64,000 nt of DNA. Origin: Phoronis australis (taxonomy: Eukaryota; Animalia; Phoronida). Both the position numbers and the translations under genes were made by a program. Under the pieces are notes generated by a model. That model searched no databases, was not told the DNA's origin, and saw only the letters and a list, made by a program, of their open reading frames with translations. Positions 19,137 to 62,880 of the stretch are shown one piece after another (within the stretch, counting starts at the first letter, position 1; each line of letters starts with the position of its first letter). The stretch is from NCBI GenBank assembly GCA_002633005.1, contig NMRA01000771.1, positions 93,104 through 157,103 of the forward strand, read 5' to 3'.

Positions 19137-19149
19137 TCCTCCCTTCTCT
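19137..19149 (-). promoter_or_regulatory. polypurine tract of Gypsy-1
   Basis: AGAGAAGGGAGGA on the minus strand directly abuts the 3' LTR. Confidence 0.9.
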
Positions 19150-19560
19150 GAAAGTTCTTACTCATGGTCCAGTGTTTATATCTAAAGTTCTCCAGTCTGT
19201 CTTCAGGCACAGTGCATGTCATGCAGTGGTGTCTAATTAAGTTAATAGAAAACAGATGTCTTCAGTTTATCATAAGACACAAATTACAGCATAGTAACAA
19301 ATTAGTGTAAACAGTCTGCTTAGTTCAGTTAAGTGATAGTGTCAGTGTTCTGGAATCAAAACAAACACAAGCTGCTAGTGGATCATCGTAGTAAACAGTT
19401 CTGTAGTAAATAACTTCTATGGGTCATCCAGTCAACTCTGGGTGGACTATCAGAGTGACAAGAACAAACAGTGATTGGTATTATTCTGACCAATTTCCTC
19501 ACTGTGTGTATCTCACAGGTGGTTTAATCACTCTCCCAGATCTGGTTGTCACAGGCTGGT

Positions 19561-20323: not shown

Positions 20324-20392
20324 AGTCAACTCTGGGTGGACTATCAGAGTGACAAGAACAAACAGTGATTGGTATTATTCTGACCAATTTCC

Positions 20393-24282: not shown

Positions 24283-24356
24283 GTCAGTATCGGTGTAGAA
24301 TGTCTCCAACACTATAATCAGTGTTCCACTGGCTTTAACTCTAAAACCAATGAGTT

Positions 24357-24367
24357 CGCTGCCACCA
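24357..24367 (-). promoter_or_regulatory. primer-binding site of Gypsy-1 (tRNA-Leu-like)
   Basis: TGGTGGCAGCG immediately inside the 5' LTR. Confidence 0.8.
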
Positions 24368-24635
24368 TGTATGAAAACCTCTTTCAAACACAACTCTGTG
24401 TTACGGTTTTACGTGGGTTTATTCTAGAGATCTACAAGATACATCTATTCACTATGCTGTCTAACTCTCAACTGTAAACTTGTTTGCCAGAACTAAAGAT
24501 CATATGCTCATGAGTCATAATCAGATTTCAGAGAATTGTTTTGTACATCTTACACAATCTATGATTCTAGCTACTAGTGCCATATAAGGTTATGTTTTGG
24601 ACTCTGCAAGTTGAATGAAAACCACGAACATAACA
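24368..24635 (-). repeat. 5' LTR of Gypsy-1 (268 bp)
   Basis: Direct repeat of 18867-19136. Confidence 0.97.
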
Positions 24636-25446
24636 TTTTTCGAAAATTTTTCCACGTCTTGTGTTCAGAAAATGGATCCACGTACAGTGCTGTGAGATTA
24701 AATGTATGGAATTTGCACTCTGTATAGATGAGAGATTACCTCAGAATCGGTAAGAAACTGCTATGTTCATTTTCTCATCCGGTATGAGTTTAGAAATACT
24801 TTCGAAGTTTGAAAAAAGTCGGATTTTATACAGTTTTATGCAGGTTTTTCGCCTGTGAGTTTAGTTGATACTGGTTATCTTCAAAATGTTGTTTCGTCTT
24901 ATTTTAATACTGTTACATTGGAGTGGGTTCCGGACACAAGTATGTATTGGCAAACATCTGAAGATTAATAAAAAGCGCTTTGGCAGCCCGCTTAGGCTGC
25001 ATGAAGCACACGCCGGCTGCCTGGTGTTCAATTCACTTTTGTTGTGCTTATGTGTAGGCGTAGAGCTGTGACCCCAATGACCCAGCTAGCACTGTCATAC
25101 TGTAGACTGTGGCGTTCCAGAAATTCCAAAGACTGTTATTGTAAACTTGACAAGTATTGCTCTGCAGACTATATTGACTTAAGTGGAGCTCACGGTACTG
25201 GCGCCCAAGCTTCCTGACCTTTAACCTTACTATGCGTTGTTACGATTGGTTAGGGACATGGCGCAAAGCGTCACCTAGGGGATCAAGAATGTTTCAAATT
25301 TCTGGCATTGTCTTGAATTCAGTCATATTTTGTTAGCCTATGGACGAGACCAATGTGTCGCATGTGCGCATGCGTTTGAGCTCCCGCCTTTGTCATTGCA
25401 TAAATTAATTCTGCTGTCAAAAGCGAAGCAAGAATTGTTTCTGACA

Positions 25447-30174: not shown

Positions 30175-30799
30175 CTGAATAGTTAGGCTGTGGCCGCGGC
30201 CAATTTTGGGGTAGGCCAAGTTTGGGGGCATTTTGTAGGTGGGCATTGCACGTAGGCTCAGTGAATGTGGTTTGTTTGTATTTGTGAACATGCTGTGAAT
30301 AAAAAAGGCCACTTTCTTGGCTGTAGCTGCACTCTTCTTCAAGATGGCGGCCCCCGGCTGCAATTGTGCATTGTTTGCGACCGAGAAATTGGCTGTGATT
30401 TTAGGTAGCCCTCAAACAAGCAAGAATTGCCAAAAAACTAGTTGGTTGACAGTACTTTTGGACCACATTTTCTGAATCGGTAGGAAATTTGCTTTCAGAC
30501 TCTAAGGTTGGTTTTAGTCGTGCATCGGCAGGGAAGTGGTGTTTTTCGAGTGAAAAGTGCCGATTTTGCATTTTTTGCCCTTATTTGTCTTAGTCTAGCT
30601 TGGTTTTCAGTGGGAATGAAATGGTCAAAAATACAAGAAAGAATAAAGTTTCTGTGCTCATCTGCTGGGCTTTTTATGTGAAATAATTTAAAACATGCCA
30701 TTCTTTGCATCCTGTTTTTGACAGAGTGAAGAAAAGGATACAAATCAAGTGATGTGTGTTTTGCAAGGCAAAACCCAGTGAGAACTGTTCTGTGCCTCC
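30175..30799. repeat. terminal module (LTDR-like), left TIR partly lost
   Basis: Near-identical to 45147-45802. Ends CTGTTCTGTGCCTCC|TTAA and contains the YY1 consensus CAAGATGGCGGC at 30340. Confidence 0.8.
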
Positions 30800-31216
30800 T
30801 TAAAAAAATGGTAAAATTTCAAGTTTGAAATATTTCAAAGTTTTGGCACTAATTCTTCTCTCTGTCACAAATCAAAGTGAGAACAATAGTTTTTGTTGAA
30901 TATTTTTTCATTTTTTTGTAAAAATTTAAGAAAGAATTGTGTGTGACTGTGTACTTGGACCAGCTGGTGGCACAGGAGCCCGGCAGCTGGGTGTAGATGT
31001 GGTGCTTGCGATTAACTTTAGACACTCATTAATGCATTTCAAATGACAATTTAATGTTCATCAGCAACAATGTGCTACAGTGCAATTAAAAACAACTACA
31101 AAACATGCTTTTACAGGTACAACAACCCTCTCTCTGCCATGGCCAGTGCATTCTTCCAAGCTTTTAAGTTCCATTTTTCCAGTTGTCGTTTGGTTTTTGC
31201 TTTGGCTAAAAAACAG

Positions 31217-33082
31217 TTAGTAACTAAGTCCGTAGCTGTGGTCAGTAGCACTAGTCGATGCCATGTTTTCCGTACTGTACACAGATTTGTCAAACATATT
31301 CGTGTTGGCCATCCTCTCCCTTAGGTAGTACCTGGCCTTTTTGTATTGTTGGCTCGACTTTCGTGTGGCATGATAAAGCTTTCTGCAGTCCACATTTCTC
31401 AACTTTCTTTTCATGGCACTGTTTTCAGGCACGGATAGTCCTGATGCCTCGGCCAGCTTCACCGTGGATTTCCCTTGTCCCAGGGTTCTGGAATGTATGG
31501 CTGAATGGCACAGACCCGTGAAATTCCGTGTGTATCGCGAAGTTTTTGGTGCGTATGCATAAACTGCTGCATTTAAACTTTCGCAAATGTTCGTGTTGAA
31601 TAGATACTTCATATCTGCTAGCTGTTCCTGGTTGAAGTAGGAGTTGATTTTTGCTTGAATTGTTTTCAAGTCTTTTTCACTGAGTTCTAGATGCCGGTCA
31701 TAAGGCAAGTGGCTTGTTGTATAGTTGCTATGATGTGCAATGCACACAGATGATAGCTCGCGACATTGCTGGTGCTGTCCTGAAAAACAGCTAGTAACAT
31801 TGTTCACTGCAGCAGCTCCAATTTTTAAAAATTCATCTTTTCCGATTTTTCTGTTTTTTAGGTTGATGAGCTCTTTTTGTACCCTAGATCGCACTGCAGA
31901 TGAAAGTTTCCTCTTATAACCGGTCTTGTTATGTGTCCTGGGCAAACTTTTCAAGTCCGCTTCGTTTACACTCTTTCCCATTCGCCTCAACCTGTGAATG
32001 AAGCATTTGTAGTGTTTGGGTTTTTTTGTTTTTGCACTGTAGAAATCACGGATGGCCTTTGCCTCTTGACTACTGGCATCAGTCGTAATGCTCCTGATAT
32101 TCAGGTCCACACCACTGTTTTCCACTGATCTGAGGCTGGCTTGTAACAGTGTGCGTTCACTTGATGCAATTGATTTTTCAGCTGGGTAGTTTTTGCTGCA
32201 GTCTTCATGCTTGCACCCGGGAATCCTGCAGTGTTTGTTCGCCGTGGCAAGGGCCAGTGGAAGTTTTCGGGTTGTTGTGTGCTCCACAAGTCCCCCGAAG
32301 CTCTGTTTAGCTTTCTCGCAGCCAGCCTGTGGCCTACTGGAGTAGGAAACGTCAAACTGAACGTCTGCAACACCCTCCCCGCCAGCCAGAGTGGTGACTT
32401 TCTTAACGTAGCGCTGGTTCTCAATCATTTGTTCTTCGTTCAATTGAGTTACTGTTTGGCTCATGGCATTCATTTTATTCTGCAGGCTGCGATTGGATGG
32501 TGGCACAATATTCAAGCATGTCAGAATGTTGATTACATCCTCGATTCCCACTTTTGACTTTAGCACAGGCAGTACAGCCTGGCTGTTCAAGGCTCCTGCT
32601 GGTGGCCCAGTCGTCTGCTGCTTGACCTCGTCGGACAATGGCACAGTGGGCGATTTATATTTGCAAACTCTGCAATGCAATGATGCACAGACACATAGTC
32701 CCAGTCTTTTTTCAACAGTTAGTTCTAGTTTTCCAAATTTGCATGCAACCTGATGCACATGTCCCACCAGGCCTGTTAAGCGACGCACGTTAATGATGAT
32801 ATTCTCATCCAGTCCCTTGCTGTCACGAATTTTTCTTTCTTTTTCAGTACTTGGCCTAAACCTGTAAGCTGTCACAGCAGCATCACAGTCAGTTAGGTGG
32901 GTGACATCCTCAGCTTCGAAATGTGTGAGACGCACAGCCTTGCAACCGTCTATTGCTGCCTCGGACTGCCTTGGTATGCTGGAGCTGCAGTGGTCCATGT
33001 TGGAGGGTCTATGTCCTTTTTTAAATTGGCTTTTTCTTCTCCCTCTGCTCCTAGTCAAACTGCGTGTCTTTTCAGGATACAT
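31217..33082 (-). CDS. DDD/E transposase, Kolobok/'Mutator-like' family, intact 621 aa
   Basis: Open 621 aa frame with CxxC motifs and candidate catalytic residues in DVQFDVSY, ITTDASS and NICESLN...APK. It also has KCFIH (CxxH) and a C-terminal DHSY. Confidence 0.8.
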   Translation of the reverse strand: MYPEKTRSLTRSRGRRKSQFKKGHRPSNMDHCSSSIPRQSEAAIDGCKAVRLTHFEAEDVTHLTDCDAAVTAYRFRPSTEKERKIRDSKGLDENIIINVRRLTGLVGHVHQVACKFGKLELTVEKRLGLCVCASLHCRVCKYKSPTVPLSDEVKQQTTGPPAGALNSQAVLPVLKSKVGIEDVINILTCLNIVPPSNRSLQNKMNAMSQTVTQLNEEQMIENQRYVKKVTTLAGGEGVADVQFDVSYSSRPQAGCEKAKQSFGGLVEHTTTRKLPLALATANKHCRIPGCKHEDCSKNYPAEKSIASSERTLLQASLRSVENSGVDLNIRSITTDASSQEAKAIRDFYSAKTKKPKHYKCFIHRLRRMGKSVNEADLKSLPRTHNKTGYKRKLSSAVRSRVQKELINLKNRKIGKDEFLKIGAAAVNNVTSCFSGQHQQCRELSSVCIAHHSNYTTSHLPYDRHLELSEKDLKTIQAKINSYFNQEQLADMKYLFNTNICESLNAAVYAYAPKTSRYTRNFTGLCHSAIHSRTLGQGKSTVKLAEASGLSVPENSAMKRKLRNVDCRKLYHATRKSSQQYKKARYYLRERMANTNMFDKSVYSTENMASTSATDHSYGLSY

Positions 33083-34018
33083 TGTGTGTGCTCACCACTC
33101 AACAGTTATGTTGTGAATGAAACTTGGCTGCCAAATTTCTTGTTCTCATGACTTTTGTGGTTATGCAAATCGACTCTAATAAATATGTCCCCTATACACA
33201 ATGGGCCTTGGTGAGAACATGTTCCACTTGTGGGGTCAGGAAATTAACTTAAATTAAACTTTTATTGTTATTTTCATATGCTAATTTATCAATTTTCCCC
33301 AATTCCCTCAATCAAAAGTCAGTTTAGTGCAAAACAGAGCAAGAAAGTGCATTTGGTGTCTTTGACTGTTAACTGGCCCTAATTCAAAAATCCCAGTTTT
33401 TGGGTGGGCACATGCAATTGGCTTGAAAAATCAAAACCGGTCATCGCTTCAAGTTTTTACTTTGCAAAATAGGTCAGCAGGTGGAACTATTCTGAAAAAA
33501 ATTTGGAAAAATGTGATTTTATTTAAAAAAATGGCAAAATTTCAAGTTTGAAATATTTCAAAGTTTTGGCACTAATTCTTCTCTCTGTCACAAATCAAAG
33601 TGAGAACAATAGTTTTTGTTGAATATTTTTTCATTTTTTTGTAAAAATTTAAGAAAGAATTGTGTGTGACTGTGTACTTGGACCAGCTGGTGGCACACGA
33701 GCCCGGCAGCTGGGTGTAGATGTGGTGCTTGCGATTAACTTTAGACACTCATTAATGCATTTCAAATGACAATTTAATGTCCATCAGCAACAATGTGCTT
33801 CAGTGCAATTAAAAACAACTACAAAACATGCTTTTACAGGTACAACAACCCTCTCTCTGCCATGGCCAGTGCTTTCTTCCAAGCTTTTAAGTATCAGTCC
33901 ACGGATCCACCGACCACTGTACAGCCAACAAGCGGCAAGGTGGGGGGTCAGCCATTCAGATCCATGTTTAGNCGGGAATCCTAAACCCCCCCTTACTGAA
34001 AACGTAGATCCACCCCTG

Positions 34019-35243: not shown

Positions 35244-37020
35244 AAGATTACTGTTGTAAGTAGTCCAGATTTAGTTCAGGAAAATGTTCCTGAACCTATG
35301 GAAACAATAGAAACTACTGGCTCTGCCACATCCGTGGTTGACCAGTCTGTAGCTCCTCCTAGTGGTGACCGAGACTCGCCACCTGTATCTAGTCGTCCTA
35401 GTAAGGCATCTGCATCCTCACCTTCTCCCTCCAAACATAAACCCAAGCCGGGAGATCTGATTTGTCCGCTCTGTAGTTTTTCAGCTGGAGAGGGCCTCTT
35501 ACAGTCACACGCTTTGACAAATCATCTACCGGCAGTTTTTGATGTCGACTCGGTGTGTCATCTCTCATCTAATGAGTTGCAGCATGCCCGTTTCGAAGCA
35601 CTGAAGTCTCTGTTCTGGCAGATTGAAGGGCGGACCATGAACAACTACGAAGATCTTCTTGACCTCGCGGGTTTAGCCGTCCGCCGCGTGGCCAAACTGC
35701 CCCGTGTAACTCTGGAAGACGAGTTACACCTAATGATCTCGTGCCGGGTACTTGGGTGGCCGATGCCAGTTACTCCTTTGTCAATTTCTGGCAGACTGCT
35801 TAACCCTGGCCTGTGCATGCACTGGTTTGTGGTGCTACATCTGATGGCGTGCGTGCCAGAGCCGAACCGTTCGGTGTGGGCCCTGTCTTTCGACTGTGGT
35901 TCAAAACAGTCCTTACCTCCGCCATTTGTAAGTCAATCGACCGCGTCTTCTGCTGTAAAAACTTATGCAAGTGCCGCTCGAGCACCAGTGAAGGCTCCTG
36001 TACTTCCGTCAGCTACAGTACCTCAAGCATTAGAGTCCGCTATAGACTCCCATTTCCATATTGATCGTTTAACAGCAGCCTATCGTTCAAAAGGCAATAT
36101 TTGTAATAACCATTTCCTGTCCATACCGGACCTTACTGATGCGACCCTTCACCGTTCGTCGTCGCATCCTATTAAACTAGTGGGTGGCATCATTGTTTTT
36201 TGCGATCCAGCGGAATACCATCGTCGCTCTATTAACGATTATGTAAGAGCTCTTCCTCAAGGGTTCAAGGCGGTGGTAGGTGTGCACCCAAAACAAGTCA
36301 GCAACTTCTCGGAGGCTGCCAGAACAACACTCTTTCAGCTTCTCTGGGAAACTTCCGTCACTGGTCTTGGCGAAATAGGATTTGAACAGTCCTTGGGTAA
36401 CGAACGTGAACAGGCTCGGTTCATTGAAGATCTGCTCCGGGACTTCGCAAATCTTACTCGTCGCCATGGANTCCGTCGCTGGTCTTGGCGAAATAGGATT
36501 TGAACAGTCCCTGGGTAACGAACGTGAACAGGCTCGGTTCATTGAAGGTCTGCTCCGGGACTTCGCAAATCTTACTCGTCGCCATGGAAGTGTGAAGGAC
36601 AAGACTTTGGTTTTCCATATCCGTTCGGCCTCCCCTGGTTCCCATTATGACTGGGGCTTCCGAACCGTGTTCAACATCATTGCAGATATTCTTCCGTCGA
36701 CCCAAAGGATCCACCTTCACACTTTTACGGGGGATACCAATGCTGTTGTGAATTTTTGCCGACAGTTCCCGAACTGCTATTTCGGGTTCTCTGGCAACTG
36801 CAATACCTTCACAAGATGGCAAGTTGATGCTTTGCGGAAGGTACCTGAAGATCGTCTCCTTTTAGAGACCGACGCTCCTCACTTGTCATTAAAGGAACGC
36901 CCAAATTATCCTCAGTTCGTTGGAGAGGTGGCTGAGGTGGTGGCCAAACATCGCGGCACGACTGTTGCACAAGTCCTTCGACAGACCGCCAGGAACGCCC
37001 GCCGATTGTATAAGCTGTAG
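35244..37020 (+). CDS. Gypsy-2 ORF3: C2H2-like zinc finger region + TatD-family nuclease
   Basis: CPLC..HALTNH, then AIDSHFH, VGVHPK, GLGEIG, LVFHIR, IHLHTF, FGFSG, LLLETDAP and NARRLY. The two track ORFs (35169-36503, 36382-37020) merge once the ~118 bp overlap duplicated around the N at 36471 is removed. The 5' half is near-identical to 59754-60520. Confidence 0.9.
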
Positions 37021-38490
37021 GCTTGTCGACGGTGTTTCCAGCGTTATTTTGTTTTGTGTAGTAGCATAGCGTTATAGTTAAATTTTAATAGTTCACTTGA
37101 AGTAGCAAAAAGCTACCAGTTATTACCTTTAACATTCCTTTTAAAAATTTGTTTTTTTTCAGTCACTTCAAAACAAAAAATAAAAGAGACTGATCCAGGG
37201 ATACTCGTTCGCGGGTAGGTCTGTTCAGTTTCACCAAACTATGCTACCTTATTGTTATCTGTTGTGTTACGTTGATTATCTGTTTCTTTGTTAATTAAGT
37301 TGACAATTAGGGTACTCAACGCTCAGTTTTTTTTATTATTATTAGCTCATTTTGTTTTTTTTCGTTGTTTTGACTTTTTGCCAAAAATTGGCATTTTTCC
37401 TCACATGTTCCATGAGAACATGTTCCACTTGTGGGGTCAGGAAATTAACTTAAATTAAACTTTTATTGTTATTTTCATATGCTAATTTATCAATTTCCCC
37501 CAATTCCCTCAATCAAAAGTCAGTTTAGTGCAAAACAGAGCAAGAAAGTGCATTTGGTGTCTTTGCCTGTTAAATGGCCCTAATTCAAAAATCCAAGTTT
37601 TTGGGTGGGCACATGCAATTGGCTTGAAAAATCAAAACCGGTCATCGCTTCAAGTTTTAACTTTGCAAAATAGGTCAGCAGGTGGAGAGGAACTATTCTG
37701 AAAAAAATTTGGAAAATGTGATTTTATTTAAAAAAAAATGGCAAAATTTCAAGTTTGAAATATTTCAAAGTTTTGGCACTAATTCTTCTCTCTGTCACAA
37801 ATCAAAGTGAGAACAATAGTTTTTGTTGAATATTTTTTCATTTTTTTGTAAAAATTTAAGAAAGAATTGTATGTGACTGTGTACTTGGACCAGCTGGTGG
37901 CACAGGAGCCCGGCAGCTGGGTGTAGATGTGGTGCTTGCGATTAACTNGGTGGGCACATGCAATTGGCTTGAAAAATCAAAACCGGTCATCGCTTCAAGT
38001 TTTTACTTTGCAAAATAGGTCAGCCGGTGGAGAGGAACTATTCTGAAAAAAATTTGGAAAATGTGATTTTATTTAAAAAAAATGGCAAAATTTCAAGTTT
38101 GAAATATTTCAAAGTTTTGGCACTAATTCTTCTCTCTGTCACAAATCAAAGTGAGAACAATAGTTTTTGTTGAATATTTTTTCATTTTTTTGTAAAAATT
38201 TAAGAAAGAATTGTGTGTGACTGTGTACTTGGACCAGCTGGTGGCACAGGAGCCCGGCAGCTGGGTGTAGATGTGGTGCTTGCGATTAAATTTAGACACT
38301 CATTAATGCATTTCAAATGACAATTTAATGTTCATCAGCAACAATGTGCTACAGTGCAATTAAAAACAACTACAAAACATGCTTTTACAGGTACAACAAC
38401 CCTCTCTCTGCCATGGCCAGTGCATTCTTCCAAGCTTTTAAGTTCCATTTTTCCATTTGTCGTTTGGTTTTTGCTTTGGCTAAAAAACAG

Positions 38491-50417: not shown

Positions 50418-52405
50418 TTAGTAACTAAGTCAGTAGCTGTGGTCAGTAGCACTAGTAGATGCCATGTTTTCCGTACTGTACACAGATTTGTCAAACATAT
50501 TCGTGTTGGCCATCCTCTCCTTTAGGTAGTACCTGGCCTTTTTGTATTGTTGGCTCGACTTTCGTGTGACATGATAAAGCTTTCTGCAGTCCACATTTCT
50601 TAACTTTCTTTTCATGGCACTGTTTTCAGGCACGGATAGTCCTGATGCCTCGGCCAGCTTCACCGTGGATTTCCCTTGTCCCAGGGTTCTGGAATGTATG
50701 GCTGAATGGCACAGACCCTTGAAATTCCGTGTGTATCGCGAAGTTTTTGGTGCGTATGCATAAACTGCTGCATTTAAACTTTCGCAAATGTTCGTGTTGA
50801 ATAGATACTTCATATCTGCTAGCTGTTCCTGGTTGAAGTAGGAGTTGATTTTTGTTTGAATTGTTTTCAAGTCGTTCACTGAGTTCTAGATGCCGGTCAT
50901 AAGGCAAGTGGCTTGTTGTATAGTTGCTATGATGTGCAATGCACACAGATGATAGCTCGCGACATTGCTGGTGCTGTCCTGAAAAACAGCTAGTAACATA
51001 TTGTTCACTGCAGCAGCTCCAATTTTTAAAAATTCATCTTTTCCGATTTTTCTGTTTTTTAGGTTGATGTGCTCTTTTTGTATCCTAGATCGCACTGCAG
51101 ATGAAAGTTTCCTCTTATAACCGGTCTTGTTATGTGTCCTGGGCAAACTTTTCAAGTCCGCTTCGTTTACACTCTTTCCCATTCGCCTCAACCTGTGAAT
51201 GAAGCATTTGTAGTATTTGGGTTTTTTTGTTTTTGCACTGTAGAAATCACGGATGGCCTTTGCCTCTTGACTACTGGCATCAGTCGTAATGCTCCTGATA
51301 TTCAGGTCCACACCACTGTTTTCCACTGATCTGAGGCTGGCTTGTAACAGTGTGCGTTCACTTGATGCAATAGATTTTTCAGCTGGGTAGTTTTTGCTGC
51401 AGTCTTCATGCTTGCACCCGCGAATCCTGCAGTGTTTGTTCGCCGTGGCAAGGGCCAGTGGAAGTTTTCGGGTTGTTGTGTGCTCCACAAGTCCCCCGAA
51501 GCTCTGTTTAGCTTTCTCGCATCCACCCTGTGGTCTACTGGAGTAGGAAACGTCAAACTGAACGTCTGCAACACCTTCCCCGCCAGCCAGAGTGGTGACT
51601 TTCTTAACGTAGCGCTGGTTCTCAATCATTTGTTCTTCATTCAATTGAGTTACTGTTTGGCTTATGGCATTCATTTTATTCTGCAGGCTGCGATTGGATG
51701 GTGGCACAATATTCAAGCATGTCAGAATGTTGATTACATCCTCGATACCCACTTTTGACTTTAGCACAGGCAGTACAGCCTGGCTGTTCAAGGCTCCTGC
51801 TGGTGGCCCAGTCGTCTGCTTCTTNGATTCCCACTTTTGACTTTAGCACAGGCAGTACAGCCTGGCTGTTCAAGGCTCCTGCTGGTGGCCCAGTCGTCTG
51901 CAGCTTGACCTCATCGGACAATGGCACAGTGGGCGATTTATATTTGCAAACTTTGCAATGCAATGATGCGTAGACACATAGTCCCAGTCTTTTTTCAACA
52001 GTTAGTTCTAGTTTTCCAAATTTGCATGCAACCTGATGCACATGTCCTACCAGGCCTGTTAAGCGACGCACGTTAATGATGATATTCTCAGTCCCTTGCT
52101 GTCACGAATTTTTCTTTCTTTTTCAGTACTTGGCCTAAACCTGTAAGCTGTCACAGCAGCATCACTGTCAGTTAGGTACATGTAGGTGATATCCTCAGCT
52201 TCGAAATGTGCGAGTCGCACAGCCCTGCAACCGTCTATTGCTGCCTCGGACTGCCTTGGTATGCTGGAGCTGCAGTGGTCCATGTTGGAGGGTCTGTGTC
52301 CTTTTTTAAATTGGCTTTTCTTCTCCCTCTGCTCCTAGTCAAACTGCGTGTCTTTTCAGGATACATTGTGTGTNTAGTGAAACTGCGTGTCTTTTCAGGA
52401 TACAT
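50418..52405 (-). pseudogene. near full-length frameshifted transposase copy
   Basis: ORFs 50430-50879, 50886-51791, 51676-52071 and 52059-52283 tile the 621 aa protein. Confidence 0.85.
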
Positions 52406-52509
52406 TGTGTGTGCTCACCACTCAACAGTTATGTTGTGAATGAAACTTGGTTGCCAAATTTCTTGTTCTCATGACTTTTGTGGTTATGCAAATCGACTCT
52501 AATAAATAG

Positions 52510-52744
52510 TGTCGTGAACCTAGGTGGGTATTCGTCGTCCAGTTTCCTTGTTCGTATGAGTGTTATGGTCGTCCGGATATAGTTTTTGTCACGTGACTGG
52601 GGAGCTGCCTGCTGGTGTGGACCTTCGCTCTCTCGTGTGTTGTCCTCCATGGCAAGAGGACGTATTTCTGACAGCGTGTTTAAGTCAAGGAATGGACAAG
52701 GGTGAGTAGCCCGAAAGGAACCTAAATAGCCATCATTCACTACA
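52510..52744 (+). repeat. putative 5' LTR of Gypsy-2 (235 bp)
   Basis: Starts TGTCGTGAA where the Kolobok match ends, ends TTCACTACA (imperfect inverted termini), and is followed by a PBS. Only one copy is in the window. Confidence 0.75.
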
Positions 52745-52746
52745 TT

Positions 52747-52760
52747 TGGTGTAGTCGGCG
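52747..52760 (+). promoter_or_regulatory. primer-binding site (tRNA-Ser-like)
   Basis: TGGTGTAGTCGGCG lies two bases after the LTR and resembles the complement of the tRNA-Ser 3' end (TGGCGTAGTCGGCAGG). Confidence 0.75.
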
Positions 52761-53055
52761 GTTACTGCGTGCGTTACTTTCCCTTGTTTCTTTCACCGTG
52801 GCGCGGAATTTAAAGTTTGTTTACTAAATTTTCCGTGCGTCCTGGTACTGCCCCGTGGCGTGGAGGGTGGTAGCTGAAACCATGTGGTTTCAGTTTTGTT
52901 TTCGTTGTGTTGTAGGAGTATACATTTTTCTTTATATATATTATCAGTTTCTTGTTTCATGATTGTTTTTTTTTCTTTTCCAGATAGTTCATGGTATAAT
53001 TTAGTATATTTCAGTAATTCTCCTACGTTGTAGTGCCTTTTAAGCACCAATCATC

Positions 53056-54471
53056 ATGGCGTCCAAGATTCCGATTAATTCTTGTGATGCTGCGACATTA
53101 TTAGACCTTCCGGGTATGACTACTGATGTTGCTACTGCAGTAATCGACTTCAGAGCAATGTCAGCGATTACACCGGAGAATATAACTAAAATACATTCCG
53201 GTTGGAAGCCGACCAAGACGATGCAGAAACACATCGACTTCTCCATCCAGTCTGGTCTGCCAGAAGATTTAGTTAAAGTTGTAGAGTTGGTTGACAGTTA
53301 CGGTAAGGAAACACCATCCAAAACTGTTTCAGCTCTTGTATCATTCCCAAAATTGGCGATGAAATTTACCCCGTCCAAGACCAGCATGGTTAGTGGTGGT
53401 GCTTTTGAAAAATCAACCTCATCTCCACATACTAGCATGTCGTCTAAACCGGCGGGGGGTTCAACTAACTACTTGCAACGTGCTCCACGCAACCTAACTT
53501 TCAGTGGTAAGCTAGGCACTTGGGAAGACTTTTTCTGGAAGTTTGATAATATAGCCAGAGACAACTGTTGGTCTACTCAAAAGTGTCGTACTGAATTAGG
53601 TATGTGCTTAGAGGGAGATGCTTCTCGTTGGTTCGCCAACCATATTAGAGCCTTTCCAGATGCTACTTATAAACAGATCATCAAAGATATGATATATCGC
53701 TTTGGTGCAGAAATCGAGTGTAACGAGGTACACCAACTTAGATTTCAGTCAGCCAAACAAGCTCCTGATGAGTCGCTTGAGCTATGGGCTGACCGTTTAA
53801 CCAGTTTATTTTTATTAGCCTTTCCAGATGCTAGGGACTGTGACAAAGCTCAGGCTGTCCTTCGTTTCTGCTTGGGTTTGAAAGACAGAGAGGTTGCTCA
53901 ATGGACGATCAATAGCAAACCTGAATCAGTCATGGAGGCTTTGAACGCCACTCGTTGGTTTTCAACCACCAAAGACCTAATGACACCATCGAGACCTACC
54001 AAAGCTGTTTCCTTCTGTAGAGAAACTTTTTCAGGTGAAGAGGAGGAAGAAGTCTCGATTCGTCAACTAAGTAAGAAACTCACTCTCAACTTCATTCCTC
54101 GTGGCTCCTTGGAGTCTCGATTAGATGTTCTTGAGGGTAGGTGTAATGATTTAGATACATCAGTTTCATTTCTCAAGACTGATAACATTAAACTTCATAA
54201 GAAAGTCGATGAGTTGAAATCTGACTTGTCCGAATCTCGTGCTGAAGTATCGAGCAATTTTAATAAGTTGTTTGCCATGTTACAGACACAGTCGCCGAAG
54301 CGACCTTCTCCACCTTCACCAAGAGCTTCGCCAGATTCATCTCCGTGGAGACCTTCTAATCTTCCTAGATGTTTCAGGTGCGGTAAGCTGGGGCATTACC
54401 AGTCGAATTGTAGGAGTTCTCCAGTGGCAGCTCGACGTACTTTCCCCAGTGATGAAGATTTAAACGAGTAA
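53056..54471 (+). CDS. Gypsy-2 Gag with N-terminal helix-hairpin-helix-like motif, capsid region, coiled coil and CCHC knuckle
   Basis: IPINSCDAATLLDLPGM...ATAVIDFR at the N-terminus, FSGK..WEDF...L.G.A..W and Q..DESL capsid motifs, and CFRCGKLGHYQSNC. Confidence 0.9.
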   Translation: MASKIPINSCDAATLLDLPGMTTDVATAVIDFRAMSAITPENITKIHSGWKPTKTMQKHIDFSIQSGLPEDLVKVVELVDSYGKETPSKTVSALVSFPKLAMKFTPSKTSMVSGGAFEKSTSSPHTSMSSKPAGGSTNYLQRAPRNLTFSGKLGTWEDFFWKFDNIARDNCWSTQKCRTELGMCLEGDASRWFANHIRAFPDATYKQIIKDMIYRFGAEIECNEVHQLRFQSAKQAPDESLELWADRLTSLFLLAFPDARDCDKAQAVLRFCLGLKDREVAQWTINSKPESVMEALNATRWFSTTKDLMTPSRPTKAVSFCRETFSGEEEEEVSIRQLSKKLTLNFIPRGSLESRLDVLEGRCNDLDTSVSFLKTDNIKLHKKVDELKSDLSESRAEVSSNFNKLFAMLQTQSPKRPSPPSPRASPDSSPWRPSNLPRCFRCGKLGHYQSNCRSSPVAARRTFPSDEDLNE

Positions 54472-54520
54472 GGACTGGGGGCCAAGGTCTAACCCCAGTC
54501 CGTACCAAAACCAAAGACCT
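54459..54520 (+). promoter_or_regulatory. -1 programmed ribosomal frameshift signal (slippery heptamer + H-type pseudoknot)
   Basis: T TTA AAC at 54459, a 6 nt spacer, stem GGACTGGGG/CCCCAGTCC, and loop AGGTCT pairing with AGACCT (54515-54520). Duplicated at 54867. Confidence 0.8.
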
Positions 54521-54866
54521 CCCTGATAGTAAAAAATAGTTGGTCTGTTGGGTTACATGAAGAAACACATGCGTAATTCTTCAAGGCCCCACAGTTCAAC
54601 CAATGGTACAGTTTTTAAAACTGCTGAATCGTGTACTCAGACTAGTGAGTTCCCTGTTGCTTTAACTGATGAAATGGTGTCTTTACATAATTCCGCTAAC
54701 AGTGATAAAGTTTCAGACTCATTGGTTTCCTCGGTTGTGCCTAATGCTTTCATTCCTCAGAATGTTGTAGGNCTAGATGTTTCAGGTGCGGTAAGCTGGG
54801 GCATTACCAGTCGAATTGTAGGAGTTCTCCAGTGGCAGCTCGACGTACATTCCCCAGTGATGAAGA

Positions 54867-57800
54867 TTTAAACGAGTAAGGACTGGGGGACAAGGTCTAA
54901 CCCCAGTCCGTACCAAAACCAAAGACCTCCCTGATAGTAAAAAAATAGTTGGTCTGTTGGGTTACATGAAGAAACACATGCGTAATTCTTCAAGGCCCCA
55001 CAGTTCAACCAATGGTACAGTTCTTAAAACTGCTGAATCGTGTACTCAGACTAGTGAGTTCCCTGTTGCTTTAACTGATGAAATGGTGTCTTTACATAGT
55101 TCCGTTAACAGTGATAAAGTTTCAGACTCATTGGTTTCCTCGGTTGTGCCTAATGCTTTCATTCCTCAGAATGTTGTAGGTAATGTTTTGCCTGATCTCC
55201 CACCATCTCCAGGGGGGCTGTCTCAGGTTCTACCAGCTGAGGCGTGTGGTGTGGACGTTTGCGTTAATCCTACGATTCCAGCTGCAGACGCTGTTTTGCA
55301 AACTATAGAAATAAAGAAAACCGCTTTTGGGAGTATGTACTACATACCTATCATCATCAACGGGACAAGTATCAATGCGGTTATTGATTGTGGTGCGGAT
55401 AGTACTATCATTTCTCACCGGCTGTTTAAATTATTGACTGATGTAGAATTTTTTCATGACATCAATGTCCATACTGCGGGTGAGGATTTATCTATGAAAG
55501 GTTTCCGCACTAAACCTGTCACTTTAATGATCAGTGACCAGTCGCACCAATCTTCAGTAGTTGTGGCCAATATTAGCGATGATTGCCTTTTAGGCCTCGA
55601 TTTACTGAAGCAGTTGAATGCAGTTATTGACATGAAATCAGATTCCATAACTTTCACTAACGAGACTTTAGTTATGAATTATGGCGTACCTAGTAAATAC
55701 CAGCCTTCNACCAATCTTCAGTAGTTGTGGCCAATATTAGCGATGATTGCCTTTTAGGCCTCGATTTACTGAAGCAGTTGAATGCGGTTATTGATATGAA
55801 ATCAGATTCCATAACTTTCACTAACGACACTTTAGTTATGAATTATGGCATACCTAGTAAATACCAGCCTTCTGTTAAGCTGTCAAAAGGTGTGGATATT
55901 CCAGCAAATTCAGTTAAGCGAGTGGACTGTATAACTTGTCCAGTTACAGCTTCCACAGTCTATTTTGAACCAAGCTTAACCGTTGACCCTCGAGTTATGA
56001 TCCCTCGAGCTCTGCTTAATACGGAAAGCTCCCCAGTTTTATTGATTTTTAATTCTTCGGAGCACCATGTCAAGTTGAAGGCTGATTCTGTTTTGGGTTG
56101 TGTAGATTACATGGAGGATTGGGAAAAATGTCCTGTGGATCTGCTACCTACCCTCGAGAGTGGAACTACCGTCAACCAACTGTCTGCCGGTTCTTGTGAT
56201 TCATCTGTTGGTGCAAGTCTAATGGGTGAACTTCTCGAAAAGGTGGACGGTCTGTATAACAAATCTAGAAATTTATTAACTGAAGCACAATCATCTAAAC
56301 TGCATCAGTTACTACTAAATTATTCAGACGTTTTTGCTACAGATGACCTGGATCTGGGTAATTTTACAGCAGTTGAGCATAGTATTGACACAGGCGATGC
56401 TCAACCTATCAAAATGGCCATGCGACGTACACCAAGTTGTTTTGTGGCAGAAGAGGAGAGCCACCTTAATAAGATGCTTAAAGCTGGTGTCATTGTTCCT
56501 TCTTCTAGCGAATGGGCTGCAGCTCCTGTTCCGATTCATAAAAAAACTGACGGTTCAGTTTGTTACTGCATTGATTATAGAAAACTGAATAATGTCACTA
56601 GAAAAGATTCATGGCCTTTACCTCTTATCGATGAGTGTATTGACTTACTGTCCGGTAACAAATGGTTCAGTAAGCTAGATGCCAATTCTGCCTATTGGCA
56701 AGTTAAAATTCGAGAAGAAGATAGAAAAAAAAAACAGCTTTTATAACCAAATATGGGTTATTTGAGTTCAAATCCATGCCATTTGGACTCTGCGGCGCAC
56801 CTTCTACATTTTCCAGAGCAATGAGTTTAGTTCTCAGAGGGTTAAATTGGGACACAGTCCTTGCATTCCTCGATGATATGTTAGTGCTGGGGTCAACCTT
56901 TGAGGAGCACATTGCTAACTTGGAAGAAGTTTTTCAGAGGTTCCGGAAGTTTCAACTCAAATTGAAACCTAAGAAGTGTCTCCTTTTCCAGCAGCGTGTC
57001 GAGTTTTTGGGTAGGTGGGTAGAACCACACGGTTTGGAGATGGGAGACGAAAATATAGAAAAGGTTAAAAACTGGCCGGTTCCTCGAAGTAAGAAGCAAT
57101 GTCAGAGCTTCCTTGGGTTTGCAAACTATCACAGGACCTTCATTAAAGATTTTGCTGAACTTGCAGTCTCCTTATACAAAGTCACTGGAGCTTCCCCTTT
57201 TTCATGGTCACATGAACAGCAAGTGGCCTTTGACAATTTGAAGGAAGCATTGACAGTTCTGACTTTACCGAATTGTTCAGATGAATTTGTGCAAGATTGT
57301 GATGCTTCCGACCTCGCGATTGGAGCTTGTCTCTATCAGGTCCAAAATGGCATAAAACGCGTAATATCTTATGCTAGTTTTGCTCTGGTGGAGGAACAGA
57401 AGCGTTATTGTACCACACGTAAGGAATTGCTGGCAGTCGTTCGTTTCACACACCATTATAGACATTATCTACTCGGACGACAATTTCGTGTCCGAACTGA
57501 TCACAACAGCCTCACATGGTTGATGAACTTTAGATCCCCTAGTGGTCAAATTGCACGTTGGTTATTGCAGCTACAACAGTTCCCTGGGATGAAGATTGAA
57601 TACCGTCCAGGTGCAAAACACGTCAACGCGGATGTGCTCTCACGTATTCCTATGGACAGGTGCAACAATTATATAGTGGGTGTTCAGCCAAGCGATCTTC
57701 CCTGTGGTGGGTGCGGTAAATGCTGGAAATCACATAATGACTGACACAAGTTCTCATCTGAGGTGGATGATTCAACATCACTTGCCTTCCTTCCTAAAGT

Positions 57801-59677
57801 AGACAAATGTGTTGGTACTAGGCAGGTGACCACGAATCCTGGTTACAATCCCAAGCGGATTACTCAGTCACCTTTTCCGTGTGACTGTGACGAGACAGAT
57901 TTTGGTCTGTCCATTACTACTTCAGATGGTGAAGATAATGTAAAGTTTGATCTTAAACCTGATAGCTGTTTTATTTACAACAACACAACATCTCCTAATG
58001 TTCATTTGAATGTTTTGAATATTTCAGCTAAACAGACTGCAGATCCTGATCTTTCGTTCGTTATTAATTGGTTAATTAATCGTGAAGTGCCATCTGATCA
58101 TGATTTATTTCTAGCCAGCCCAGCTGCCAAGTTCTACTGGATTAACAAAGATTGTTTTCAGCGTTGTAATGATGTCCTCTTCTGGAAATCCCCAGAGGGT
58201 GGCCAGCTGTTAACAGTAGTTCCTGCAGTTTTAAAGATGACTGTTCTAGAAATGTGTCATATTATTCCTTCGGCAGCTCACCAGGGTATTGCTAGTACAA
58301 AACTTAAGATTAAGAGTAAGTACTTTTGGTATGGGTTGACCAAAGACGTGCAGCTGTTTATTGCGTCTTGTCCCGCATGTAACAAGAACAAACAGGGTAC
58401 AAGACATGGTCGGTCTCCCATGATTCGTTTTCATGCTGGAGCACCGATGGAACGGGTACACGTTGATTTTCTTGGTCCTCTACCCTTATCTCCACATGGC
58501 AATCAGCATGTGTTGATGATAGTTGATCAATTTACCAAGTGGGTGGAATGTATTCCCCTTCCTTCTCAGACTGCCGAAGTTACAGCTACCACAGCAGTAA
58601 ATGAATTTTTCACGCGTTTCGGGTATCCTTTCCAAATTTTCTCCGATCAGGGGAGGAATTTTGAAAGCAATTTATTTCGGGCTGTTTGTGAACTTTTGCA
58701 TATTCATAAGTCGCGCACAACTTCTTATCGACCCTCCGCAAATGGTCAGGTTGAGCGGTACAATCGAATACTTATGGATGCAGTAAGATGTTACGTCAGT
58801 GATTTTCAGACGGATTGGGATTTATATATTCCACAGATTGCCGGCGCGATCCGCTCTTCAGCAAATCGCCATACTGGGTTGACGCCTAATATGATGATGT
58901 TGGGTCGTGAGGTCACACAGCCGGTTGACCTCATGTTCCCTCTACCGTCTGCTCCGAACAACGTTTCATCTTCAGATTACGTTCTTAAGCTGCAAACAGC
59001 AATTTCAAAAGCGCATGAAGCGGCACGTCGTGTACTGCAAACTAGTCAATCTTCTATGAAAAAAGATTATGACCTTACTATATTTAAACGTGTTTTTCGA
59101 ACAGGCGATCTGGTGTTTATCTTTGACTCAGCTTCAGCAAAGCGTAAGAAGTTATCGTCTCCTTGGAGGGGACCTGGTATTATCACTGAAGTCATTTCAC
59201 CAGCTTTATATAGAATTCGTGTCAAGAATTCTGTGTCCGTGATTCATCATGATCGCATGAAATTATGTAAAACTGGTTATACAGATTTACCTGCTTGGCT
59301 TCAAAGAATAGTTAANTAAGTGTAAGAAGTTATCGTCTCCTTGGAGGGGACCTGGTATTATCACTGAAGTCATTTCACCAGCTTTATATAGAGTTCGTGT
59401 CAAGAATTCTGTGTCAGTGATTCATCATGATCGCATGAAATTATGTAAAACTGGTTATACAGATTTACCTGCCTGGCTTCAAAGAATAGTTAACGTTGTT
59501 AACATCGACACTAGCGCAAATGATCAGTTGTATTGCGTGTGTCGTCAGCCTGACCATGGTGGCCTCATGATTCAATGTGATTCATGTGATGATTGGGTAC
59601 ACGGTGAGTGTGTCAACATTACGGCTGATGATGCTCGTGATATGGACGTTTATTTGTGTCCGCGGTGCAAGCCTTGA
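54867..59677 (+). pseudogene. Gypsy-2 Pol (protease, RT, RNase H, integrase, PHD finger), disrupted
   Basis: IDCGA protease, FLDD RT, CDAS RNase H, H..H/CPAC + VHVDF/SDQG/VERYN integrase, and a C-terminal PHD. There is an A-run frameshift at ~56730, a TGA at 57742, and N-join duplications at 55709 and 59316. Confidence 0.92.
59527..59677 (+). CDS. PHD finger at integrase C-terminus
   Basis: LYCVCRQPDHGGLMIQCDSCDDWVHGECVNITADDARDMDVYLCPRC has the C4HC3 pattern and is in frame with the integrase tail SVIHHDRMKLC. Confidence 0.9.
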
Positions 59678-59700
59678 TTATATCTCTGTTTTTGTTCCAG

Positions 59701-60520
59701 AACCTGTTTTTTCGTGTGTGGATGTTCGTCTGAAGAATAATCCAGACCTACCGAAGATTACTGTCGTAAGTAGTCCAGATGTAGTTCAGGAAAATGTTCC
59801 TGAACCTATGGAAACAGTAGAAACTACTGACTCTGCCACATCCGTGGTTGACCAGTCTGTAGCTCCTCCTAGTGGTGACCGAGACTCGCCACCGGTATCT
59901 AGTCGTCCTAGTGAGGCATCCGCGTCCTCACCTTCTCCTTCCAAACATAAACCCAAGCCGGGAGATCTGATTTGTCCGCTCTGTAGTTTTTCAGCTGGAG
60001 AGGGCCTCCTACGGTCACACGCTCTGACAAATCATCTACCGGCAGTTTTTGATGTCGACTCGGTGTGTCGTCTCTCATCTAATGAGTTGCAGCATGCCCG
60101 CTTCGAAGCACTGAAGTCTCTGTTTTGGCAGATTGAAGGGCGGACCATGAACAACTACGAAGATCTTCTTGACCTCGCAGGTTTAGCCGTCCGCCGCGTT
60201 GCCAAACTGCCCCGTGTAACTCTGGAAGACGAGTTGCACCTAATGATCTCGTGCCGGGTACTGGGGTGGCCGATGCCAGTTACTCCTTTGTCAATTTCTG
60301 GCAGACTGCTTAATCCGGGCCTGTGCATGCACTGGTTTGTGGTGTTACATCTGATGGCTCGTGTGCCGGAGCCGAACCGTTCGGTGTGGGCCCTGTCTTT
60401 CGACTGTGGTTCAAAAGATGTGCAGTCCTTACCTCCGCCGTTGGTAAGTCAATCGACCGCGTCTTCTGCTGTAAAAACTTATGCAAGTGCCGCTCGAGCA
60501 CCATTGAAGGCTCCTGTACT
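59701..60520 (+). CDS. Gypsy-2 ORF3, N-terminal half (continues into TatD in the 35244-37020 copy)
   Basis: Open frame directly after the pol stop, preceded by a polypyrimidine tract and CAG (59683-59700). Near-identical to 35244-36004. Confidence 0.8.
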
Positions 60521-60939
60521 NCAATAAACAACCCTAGAAGGATACCGTATACGGTGCAATTGTGGGCGCATTTCAACGCTCTGCGTTGCTCTTGTTAAGT
60601 ATTTCAGGATTGTATTCAAAAGAAAACATGTAGTTCAAATAGATTTATTTTGACCACACTGGTCAAATATCATCTACATCTCATACAGGTGACGACCACT
60701 GCATCGTGATAAACAAGACAAATGAATTAACAGATCAAGATCCTGAAGCAGATTAATTACAAAAAACATGAACTATCCTATCTTAGAAATACTGCAAAGT
60801 CAGTGTTCTAACTTAAATAAGCCAGTTCATTATCTAATTAGAGCACACCTTGAAAACACAATAATAAAACAAAGAATAGTGCGTTATCACAACTTATGAT
60901 TTCTATGTCAATATTTTAAGTTCAGTTATACTTTATCTT

Positions 60940-62880
60940 GTAACCTTTCATTGTGTGATAGCGTTCAAAAGAGTTAACAGCATGCAGACCAACTTTACAG
61001 TCATGTTTTCCATTTAGTGTTCACCTGCATTCTCTTTTTAAATTTCCTGTCTGAACACACCACACAGTCAGGCCTAACTGTACCTGTGTTCTCCAAAAAA
61101 TGCTGTCCACCGAGACGCATCTCATCAAAAGTCTTTGGTCAGAGCTCTTTCTCTGCGAAGGTTTTGCTGAGCATACCCTTCCACAAGACCTTCCAAAACA
61201 CTCATTTGGAATGCCACCGTATCCATTTTGTGGCCATTGGACTCAAAAAGTATTTTGGCATTAACCAACGCAATCTCACGTAAATGGTGAAAAACATTTA
61301 TATACCACTTGGGGGTACGGTGTGGAAATTCATAATAGCTGCACAACTGATCATTTAAATCAGTGCCACCCATATGTTTATTGTAATGGTCAATCAGAGA
61401 TGGCTTCTTAATTGACCGATATCCTGTTGTAGAATTCCTGCTGCGGAGTTGTTTTTCAACAAAACCTGCCAGGTGAATTGTCGACAGTCCTTGCACAAGT
61501 TTTTTGTCATAGAACTAGGTTGCCAGCAACGCCCCTTTGCGAAAAAATATTGTGTCCTGGCTAGATTTTATTTTGTCTTGAACTCTTCTGGCATACCTTT
61601 ACGGCCGGCGCGAACTGTGCCACAAGCACCAATGTTCTTTGACTTTAACATTGAAAATAAATCGGGCGACGAATAAAAGTTATCAAGGTATACATGATGA
61701 CCCTTGTTTTCATATCCGTCAAGAAGGGATAGTACTACACGACTAGCCAACAGTAAGCCATCATGTTGTCCGGCGTCTTCTTTATCACCATAGACATTTA
61801 TTTTCAACGTGTAGCCAGTGAGACTCTCATTGAGTACCCAGTTTTTAACACCAAAGCTGGTCTTCTTAGAAGGCATAAATTGACGAAAATGTAGCCGTCC
61901 TTTAAAACGTATCATGCTCTTGTCGATGGTCAGGTGAGTGGATGGTTGATAGCTGGCAGCAAAAACTGTATTCAGGTGAGTATATACTGGTCGAATTTTG
62001 AACAGGGGGTCGTAGCCAGCCTCACCTCTTCGTATCTGGTCATTGTTGTTGACAAAGTGTAGCATTGAAATCTACTTCTAGACATAACAGAAAAAAAAAT
62101 TGTTATACAAACTGTGGTGACTCCAGAGGCTTGACATCATAGGTGTTTTCACGAGGCCCATTGCAATGTGCAAGGCAGTAAAAGCTTTCATGTCCGCAAC
62201 GTTAACTGGGACCCACGAGTTCCGTTGGGAATGTTGCTTTAACGGCCTATTTTGGCTGATCCGCTGCTCTGCATAACGATTGGTTTCAATTTTCAAAAGA
62301 TTGAACAATTCGTCATTAAGAAATAACGAGAAGTAGTTCACGGGATCTTCCCGTAAGTACAACTTTTCGACCAACTCCGAGTTCGAACGTCGGACACCAT
62401 ACTGGCACGGGACGATCGCCACGATCTAACTCCCATATATCATTCATTTCCGCAACGACACTGTCCAAATCTTCGTCAGAGTTAGAATCATCAATATCCT
62501 TGAGGTCGAAGCCGTCAAATTCCTCTCCAGAGTCAGAATCATTATAAAAAATGCTTACAATCAAGTCCAAGTCAGTCCCAGAAAGCTGATCGGCAGCCAT
62601 TTTTTGTTGCCGTGGACGCTATACTTTTTCATTGACGAATCGGCTTTCGTTTCACAACTGGGAGTTTGAAATTTAGGAATGAAATTCCTACTACGTTACA
62701 GTTCAACCTCATCTGATTGGTCGTATTTGTTTTGTTTGTTATATAATTCCATCTGATTGGTTTACTATGACCTTCATTGAAGCCACTATAGAAGAGAGGT
62801 CATGGTCGCAATTTTGCGGCTAAAGCACTGAGGGGTCACGCATGTTTTGGTGCAGAAATGTGACCAAAGCACTGAGAGGG
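60940..62880 (-). mobile_element. piggyBac transposon with decayed transposase (PGBD4-like)
   Basis: Terminus TTAA|CCCTCTCAGTGC at 62880. Fragments read ETNRYAEQ, DPLFKIRP, TIDKSMIRFKGR, YLDNFYSS, YNKHMGGTDLNDQ and a C-terminal CVVC. Several frameshifts; the other TIR was not found. Confidence 0.9.

Follow-up and report, generated by a model that had tools for sequence, protein, structure and literature searches.

What is a nuclease of the TatD family doing in the position that env would occupy in a Gypsy retrotransposon? The question is raised by a 64,000-nucleotide stretch of DNA from the phoronid Phoronis australis (GenBank assembly GCA_002633005.1, contig NMRA01000771.1, positions 93,104 to 157,103 of the forward strand; hereafter the window), in which an initial annotation, made from the letters alone, recognized between 52510 and 60520 a Gypsy element whose third open reading frame (ORF3) would encode a complete TatD domain. 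We conclude that this pol-TatD architecture is close to certainly real, that it characterizes one clade of Gypsy integrases, and that ORF3 is expressed from an mRNA spliced out of the long terminal repeat (LTR). The spliced mRNA, a second splice that deletes ORF3 and a PHD finger at the end of pol are features beyond those of the initial annotation.

The window is a eukaryotic scaffold made of overlapping pieces in scrambled order, joined by single Ns (35243, 36471, 59316 and 60521). For this reason ORF3 is broken into three pieces (59701-60520, 35244-36470 and 36472-37020), and its TatD half lies about 23 kb away from pol. Since pol and the TatD domain are not contiguous there, their linkage rests on data from outside the window, and such a mosaic would be expected if the association were an assembly artefact, or if a host TatD gene lay next to a Gypsy element by chance. 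As first noticed in the initial annotation, a separate ORF directly follows the pol stop at 59677, and its sequence at 59754-60520 recurs at 35244-36004 (95.4% identity over 767 columns, with 29 differing sites and one 6-base indel). Reads and contigs from coded public runs of the same species were placed on both ORF3 sites. In run X1, a 799-base contig spans 35732-36353 and 36472-36642, leading from the shared part into the TatD domain; this bridging contig, matched by its depth value of 31.7, has the 6-base insertion and eight of the nine listed variants of the pol-adjacent copy. Among the 40 best-supported places, 22 of the 25 listed read variants in 35244-36004 carry the pol-adjacent allele, and RNA reads entering at 35244 originate from sequence ending at 59753 (15 and 12 reads). 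These outside data support the linkage of pol to TatD that the initial annotation had made conditional on a physical join of the two halves.

The same arrangement recurs in relatives. A motif scan of two collections returned 74 loci (L numbers), of which an ORF3 profile confirmed 47 at the motif and 27 not; L045, among the latter, has pol upstream and an ORF3 match nonetheless. Of the confirmed loci, 23 have 2.4 kb or more of upstream sequence, a threshold set after the table was seen, and in every one of these a Gypsy integrase and a PHD finger precede the TatD ORF3 on the same strand. Five loci with 1.8-2.1 kb upstream yielded the PHD finger in three cases, a protease fragment in one and nothing in one. 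Clustered at 80% nucleotide identity, the 23 loci fall into 21 families, although few source assemblies contributed them. In the reverse test, three assemblies gave 129 integrase matches, and the best 12 of them (54-60% identity), located on 11 contigs, are without exception accompanied by ORF3 matches on the contig; the fear that copies of the family might lack ORF3 was not borne out in this set. An integrase tree of 41 rows, which omits L035, L045 and L132 as too short, unites the window element and 20 TatD carriers in one clade (100/100), with L108, a carrier of a divergent TatD, immediately outside. The proposed Gypsy lineage with TatD cargo in the env position is therefore borne out. Because a contig and reads bridge the two halves, because 23 of 23 relatives agree and because their integrases form a single clade, the artefact reading is refuted; a finger/helical domain of ORF3, which 66 of 67 long homologues and none of 120 host TATDN2-type proteins possess, also speaks against it, and we consider it scarcely credible.

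A full HMMER scan recovered 195 homologues with E values of 0.001 or less, the top one being 34% identical, and among the 60 longest that were scanned, 59 have a PF01026 match (E 0.001); a word-index homologue search using the N-terminal half of ORF3 returned no matches, and in IMG/VR none of 15 pattern matches was confirmed. Named homologues belong to bivalves (Mercenaria, Pecten, Argopecten, Mya), a brachiopod (Lingula) and echinoderms (Diadema, Acanthaster), a host range that implies either great age or horizontal spread. A Mya arenaria cluster counts 13 members, on records of differing lengths, and an Acanthaster gene model joins integrase, PHD finger and TatD. Because of this one model a read-through or fusion of pol and ORF3 was entertained, and it was set aside, the pol stop being present and no pol-to-ORF3 RNA joint being listed.

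Several observations concern the surroundings of the clade. A divergent second type of TatD ORF3 (L108:7518-9032 and L100-L103; about 500 residues, with another motif replacing CDP) stands behind a more distant integrase and is placed as sister group in the TatD tree; either an early split or a separate, second capture may account for it. An attempt to join this type with L114-L120 failed, as the link could not be made. In other Gypsy lineages of the same assembly (L124, L126, L128, L130 and L133; 5 of 12 scanned), post-pol ORFs of 250-500 residues open with a C2H2-type finger, and the TatD gene may have been added onto such an ORF. The record of locus L005, G001, is a 9.0-Mb assembly labelled as a bacterial metagenome-assembled genome (MAG), in which ORF3s are annotated as bacterial TatD; it has 114 Gypsy integrase matches and therefore very likely contains animal host DNA.

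How ORF3 is expressed was read from RNA runs X6 and X7, of each of which about 18-19% was read, and from a third run, X8. Most reads are 90-99% similar to the window and derive from family members in other individuals, not necessarily from the window copy. ORF3 is covered end to end in X6 and X7, nearly all pairs having their first mate on the minus strand, which in most stranded libraries denotes transcription of the sense strand. A GT..AG joint leads from 52701 in the 5' LTR to 59701 (13 reads in X6 and 24 in X7, 37 reads in total in two of the three runs), and of the four ATGs in the LTR exon solely that at 52692 is in the ORF3 frame after splicing. The ORF3 mRNA thus follows the env strategy, a 5' donor being spliced past gag-pol to an acceptor behind pol. 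In X8, depth is 8-15 across ORF3 as against 0-6 across gag-pol. Loose read ends (14 reads in X6, 13 in X7) mark a second splice, which joins a donor after 59765 with an acceptor at 37162/37163, deletes almost all of ORF3 and leaves a 31-codon frame. The doubly spliced RNA (59701-59765 plus 37163 onward) would give a 31-residue peptide with a short motif common to the ORF3 of relatives such as P0010; this peptide may be a product, or the splice a mere route to discard the nuclease frame. By a strict rule, six of 16 relatives have a pyrimidine-tract acceptor no more than 100 bases from the pol stop, where shuffles average 2.7 and 32 of 206 control windows contain one; this lends modest support to the splice being general among them.

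The protein itself matches its first description closely: about 573 codons by coordinate arithmetic, where roughly 570 residues had been proposed, with the Ser/Pro-rich linker, the CxxC-H-H finger and the helical region all located and a complete TatD domain running to 37020, in which every motif listed by the initial annotation (DSHFH, GVHP, GEIG, FHIR, HLHTF and ETDAP) was recovered. PF01026 is matched above its cut-off of 27 bits in both halves, the piece from 35244 covering model positions 1-121 (31.7 bits) and that from 36472 covering positions 81-253 (89.9 bits). In 16 relatives ORF3 is 666-1085 residues long. It opens with a helical domain, which a long, variable linker connects to the finger/helical domain, itself about 150 residues in length; another linker leads on to TatD. 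Invariant positions of the finger/helical domain are His, His, Pro and Trp, and its model has a mean predicted local distance difference test score of 89. Pfam offers no family for the window copy, and among 35 rows gave four single-member matches at E 0.04-0.09; no usable ESM Atlas match and no viral-structure match at E 0.001 was obtained, and the best structural match among 48,161 solved chains is the Ndc80 CH domain (Z 4.2, root-mean-square deviation 3.5, 87 aligned). These structure searches neither give the domain a fold nor prove that its fold is novel. No membrane segment was found by a simple hydropathy scan, made with no dedicated predictor, as no 19-residue stretch reaches 1.8 in the window pieces or in any of the 16 relatives (range 0.5-1.65).

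The TatD domain belongs to group II (HxH), as this group is defined in PMC10085689. The model of a relative, P0006 (not the window protein), is a TIM barrel whose top 15 listed Foldseek matches are all of TatD type (E 5e-15 to 4e-11). The ligands H, H, E, H, H and D, whose retention had been postulated from the window, are indeed found across its two halves and in all 28 full-length ORF3s of the tree set; as rows were chosen on the HxH and ETD motifs, those columns agree by construction, and the Glu and the two middle His are the free tests. That these three residues are invariant in 28 of 28 ORF3s of only about 30% overall identity speaks against the idea that TatD is kept as a module for binding or exporting nucleic acids, its catalysis being irrelevant. 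Export of genomic RNA by a spliced accessory protein has a precedent (Cer1 CERV), but we regard this idea as quite improbable. Comparison of dN/dS (the ratio of replacement to synonymous substitution rates) among copies gave 0.14 between the window copies (253 codons; 20 synonymous and 9 replacement changes) and 0.13-0.40 in six TatD-domain pairs, the measurable ones among 36 TatD coding sequences. By these codon counts, ORF3 is shown to be under purifying selection.

Where the TatD domain came from was addressed with a tree of 63 rows, namely 30 ORF3s, 25 animal TATDN2 and eight bacterial proteins, with no TATDN1 or TATDN3 and with one Bulinus TATDN2 left out, as it has no full domain. The 30 ORF3 rows form one group (96/89), apart from animal TATDN2 (100/99) and from bacterial TatDs. 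In this comparison with host proteins, of the kind proposed in the initial annotation, the best tree places ORF3 outside TATDN2, but a nesting with mollusc TATDN2 was not rejected: an approximately unbiased (AU) test does not reject a single clade of ORF3 and 14 mollusc TATDN2 (p-AU 0.34). A Cys before the CDP-type motif, present in 25 of 25 TATDN2, 24 of 28 ORF3s and none of eight bacterial rows, hints at kinship with TATDN2. Hosts retain their own TATDN2, and ORF3 TatD, found behind an integrase in every one of the 23 long loci and represented by 13 cluster members in Mya, is unlike a low-copy cellular TATDN2 orthologue; the suspicion that it might be a single-copy host gene is dispelled by these members and by the tree. 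The same facts weigh against the proposal that ORF3 benefits the host, for instance in germ-line DNA repair, and that part of the copies have become host genes. Annotation does treat many copies in this way, and Tatdn2 reportedly safeguards primordial germ cells (PMC12709183). Nevertheless, every testable copy lies behind an integrase, hosts keep a TATDN2 of their own, and among the named proteins genomic context was seen only for the Acanthaster integrase-PHD-TatD model; we judge this proposal very improbable.

What, then, could the enzyme do? The explanation we prefer, with a confidence that stops just short of even, is that a Gypsy ORF3, translated from an LTR-spliced mRNA, combines a zinc-finger/helical domain with an intact group II TatD, and that this predicted active nuclease, likely nuclear, acts on RNA:DNA hybrids or cDNA ends of its own element and thereby aids transposition. 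Layout, splice, expression, ligands, purifying selection and clade-wide retention are the observed part of this explanation; its other steps are proposals. By family analogy, TatD would be a two-metal 3'-5' exonuclease, an apurinic/apyrimidinic (AP) endonuclease or an R-loop RNase. Group II TatDs cut single-stranded DNA at 3' ends and nick AP sites (PMC10085689), and TATDN2 is an RNA 3' exonuclease that takes the RNA strand off R-loops (PMC10711561). The finger domain, likely a binder of nucleic acids, would target the enzyme, a nuclear location is suggested by the lack of a membrane segment and by a basic patch before the finger, and the ORF3-deleting second splice would limit the amount of nuclease. 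In a broader formulation, which we advance tentatively, an old Gypsy clade of molluscs, brachiopods and echinoderms would have an active TatD with a new targeting domain. An env-style mRNA would supply this protein and the second splice would set its dose, the clade would use it to clear R-loops or silencing RNA at its own copies, and the clade would be a hidden source of many TATDN2-like annotations in marine invertebrates.

Two other activities of the same enzyme have to be weighed. Its substrate could be the silencing machinery itself, the nuclease trimming or destroying PIWI-interacting RNAs (piRNAs), their precursors or nascent RNA bound by silencing complexes, with the finger aiming it at element loci. 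Such a role would fit the separate expression of ORF3, often above that of gag-pol as in X8, the PHD finger of the integrase, which points to chromatin reading, the RNA 3' exonuclease activity of TATDN2 (PMC10711561), the silencing role suggested for rotifer DEDDy ORF3s (PMC5408684), and the C2H2-finger proteins that occupy the same slot in other Gypsy lineages of the same assembly. Sequence does not tell it from action on the element's own hybrids, and both could hold; taken by itself, we deem it a serious but rather unlikely alternative. Alternatively, the nuclease could be directed at other retroelements or at viruses in the same cell, whose cDNA or replication intermediates it would degrade. 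QatD, a group II TatD co-opted for anti-phage defence, cuts single-stranded DNA and AP sites (PMC13434339), and the ORF3-deleting splice would fit a toxic product. However, more than 100 other Gypsy integrase matches in the same host assembly (G001) indicate that competitors are not kept out, and no mechanism of self-protection is visible, which makes a weapon of this kind improbable.

Returning to a nuclease that acts on its own element's hybrids or cDNA ends, several results weigh against it. Among 20 more distant Gypsy integrase loci none has ORF3 or the PHD finger, and eight of these have less than 1.1 kb past the pol stop and cannot be judged; as such neighbouring lineages lack TatD, ORF3 is accessory at most. 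The element encodes its own RNase H, and a second hybrid nuclease in the particle is not obviously needed. Most relatives have an N-terminal helical domain of about 100 residues that is missing from the window ORF3. The window linker also lacks the basic patch, which is seen in 10 of 16 relatives in a count made with no control. In the overlap of the window TatD pieces dN/dS is 0.74, over 34 codons only. No LTR-to-ORF3 joint is listed for X8, and the acceptor test among relatives is modest, 32 of 1000 shuffles scoring equally high.

The features of the element are collected in Table 1. In the window, as in long relatives, Pfam matches in the ORFs give the Ty3/Gypsy order of gag, protease, reverse transcriptase (RT), RNase H and integrase; pol, which terminates with the integrase C-terminus and the PHD finger, consists there of N-joined overlapping pieces, in which the frame is broken near 56725 and interrupted by a stop at 57742-57744.

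Table 1. Coordinates of the Gypsy element and its ORF3 pieces in the window
Feature	Position	Strand	Remarks
5' LTR, TG...CA	52511..52744	+	Ends from sequence; inside Mutator-like element; contains splice donor and ORF3 start codon
ORF3 ATG and first codons, LTR exon	52692..52701	+	Donor GT at 52702; RNA joint GT..AG
Primer-binding-site-like sequence	52747..52759	+	2 bases past LTR end; sequence reading
gag with CCHC knuckle	53056..54471	+	PF03732 (E 3e-4) and PF00098 (E 5e-4), both slightly below cut-offs
pol: protease, RT, RNase H, integrase, C-terminal PHD finger	54864..59677	+	PF13975, PF00078, PF17917, PF17921, PF00665, PF22938, PF00628
ORF3 exon, pol-adjacent piece	59701..60520	+	Acceptor after pyrimidine tract; Ser/Pro linker; CxxC-H-H finger and helical domain (59952-60416); truncated by N at 60521
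Second splice donor	59766..59771	+	Joins acceptor 37162/37163; canonical sites, loose read ends, phase
ORF3 second copy	35244..36470	+	Linker, finger/helical domain, TatD first half (from about 36042) with HxH, HP and catalytic Glu
ORF3 C-terminal TatD half	36472..37020	+	His, His and Asp ligands and stop codon; 117-base overlap with preceding piece at 97%
3' untranslated region	37021..37412	+	Transcription to about 37214; then junction to Mutator-like DNA, no 3' LTR

The initial annotation had proposed a count of TatD loci downstream of an integrase and within paired LTRs. An integrase was found upstream; paired LTRs were not found in the window, where the LTR-like 5' stretch has no second copy and where no 3' LTR is present. 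LTR-like repeats do flank TatD in one relative, L106. There, one copy of a 94-base repeat (98.9%) begins where unique flanking sequence ends, and the other follows a purine run situated about 160 bases downstream of the TatD stop, placing TatD between repeats with the features of a polypurine tract and an LTR; the contig ends inside the repeat. Several other relative contigs are circular overlaps, and a 1187-base repeat in L105 was rejected as an LTR pair, as it includes the primer-binding site and begins 6 bases after the ORF3 stop, and is read as a circular-assembly overlap. The primer-binding-site-like sequence of the window, which we take to be tRNA-Ser-like, has counterparts in the similar CA-nn-TGG sites of L105, L106 and L107; a fixed primer-binding-site pattern had no match across 20 relative loci.

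The outer ends of the element fall in Mutator-like DNA. The left flank of the LTR (52375-52513) matches a Mutator-like copy at 33052-33189, and the junction at 37413 corresponds to position 33212 of that copy, so that this flank and the right flank of the TatD piece (37413-37600) lie about 25 bases apart in one Mutator-like element. From these flank positions, we infer a suggestive case for both outer ends belonging to one insertion, the 3' LTR having been deleted along with a little target DNA. Near the end of transcription, RNA reads (12 and 10) depart at a GT donor-like site at 37214 into sequence outside the window, and a DNA contig departs at 37218 into a different sequence.

Other elements share the window. 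The Mutator-like transposase (PF20700, E 8e-44) is encoded at 31217-33091 on the minus strand, within a region from 30200 to 33900, and the element recurs as many 95-98% identical N-joined fragments up to 52513. The minus strand at 18867-24636 carries a second, unrelated and young Gypsy element, whose 271-base terminal repeats agree at 99.3% and which contains a gap at 19561-20323. Pieces of a piggyBac-type transposase (PF13843) lie at 61125-62425 on the minus strand, and a short repeat of very high copy number at 60522-60597.

No description of a TatD-bearing retrotransposon was found in the titles and abstract starts of the literature searched, a search that lay outside Repbase, subscription journals and supplements. 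A TATDN2 label appears in a figure of a squid Hox cluster (PMC6962438), a review of accessory domains names the chromodomain, a DnaQ-like exonuclease and a viral helicase (PMC6338049), and a term search through the main text of a 2026 survey of Gypsy elements with env turned up neither TatD nor nuclease (PMC13524379). The clade tables of mollusc Gypsy clades MolGy1-16, CsRN1 and C-clade (PMC6238403) may bear on the name of the TatD clade. TatD would be a new class of accessory enzyme for LTR retrotransposons, kept intact across a clade with protostome and deuterostome hosts, and therefore arguably useful to the element. It offers a direct test of whether retroelements handle R-loops, abasic sites or piRNA silencing with enzymes of their own. 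Moreover, genome annotations of clam, scallop, Lingula and urchin list these ORF3s among the host genes, and in symbiont MAGs that apparently contain host DNA they pass for bacterial TatD; apparent expansions of the TatD family are inflated as a consequence.

Among known systems, the env of errantiviruses and retroviruses, made from a spliced subgenomic mRNA, shares with the TatD ORF3 its post-pol position, a splice from a 5' donor that skips gag-pol, and a start codon supplied by the 5' exon. The TatD ORF3 differs in having an enzyme fold, an extra splice that deletes the ORF, and neither signal peptide nor transmembrane segment by simple hydropathy scan; it is env-like in position and splicing, yet does not qualify as an env. 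As a protein, it shares the HxH and E, H, H, D ligands with the group II TatDs TATDN2, TATDN3, YcfH and YjjV (PMC10085689), and TATDN2 also has a long low-complexity N-terminal extension; in contrast to host TATDN2, it forms its own clade in the best tree, has the extra finger/helical domain, and is multi-copy and element-borne. QatD of QatABCD (PMC13434339), likened here by description alone, is likewise a group II TatD engaged in genetic conflict, but sits in a bacterial defence operon. The nearest precedent is provided by Juno and Vesta of bdelloid rotifers (PMC5408684), Gypsy-type elements that likewise carry in the env position a nuclease gene with intact catalytic residues, and whose source describes ORF3s as arising from spliced messages. 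Their ORF3 is a DEDDy 3'-5' exonuclease, whereas that of the window element is a PF01026 TatD TIM barrel with a finger/helical domain and no DEDD domain; and while the cargo of Juno and Vesta is patchy within one host group, the TatD ORF3 is fixed across one deep integrase clade that spans several phyla.

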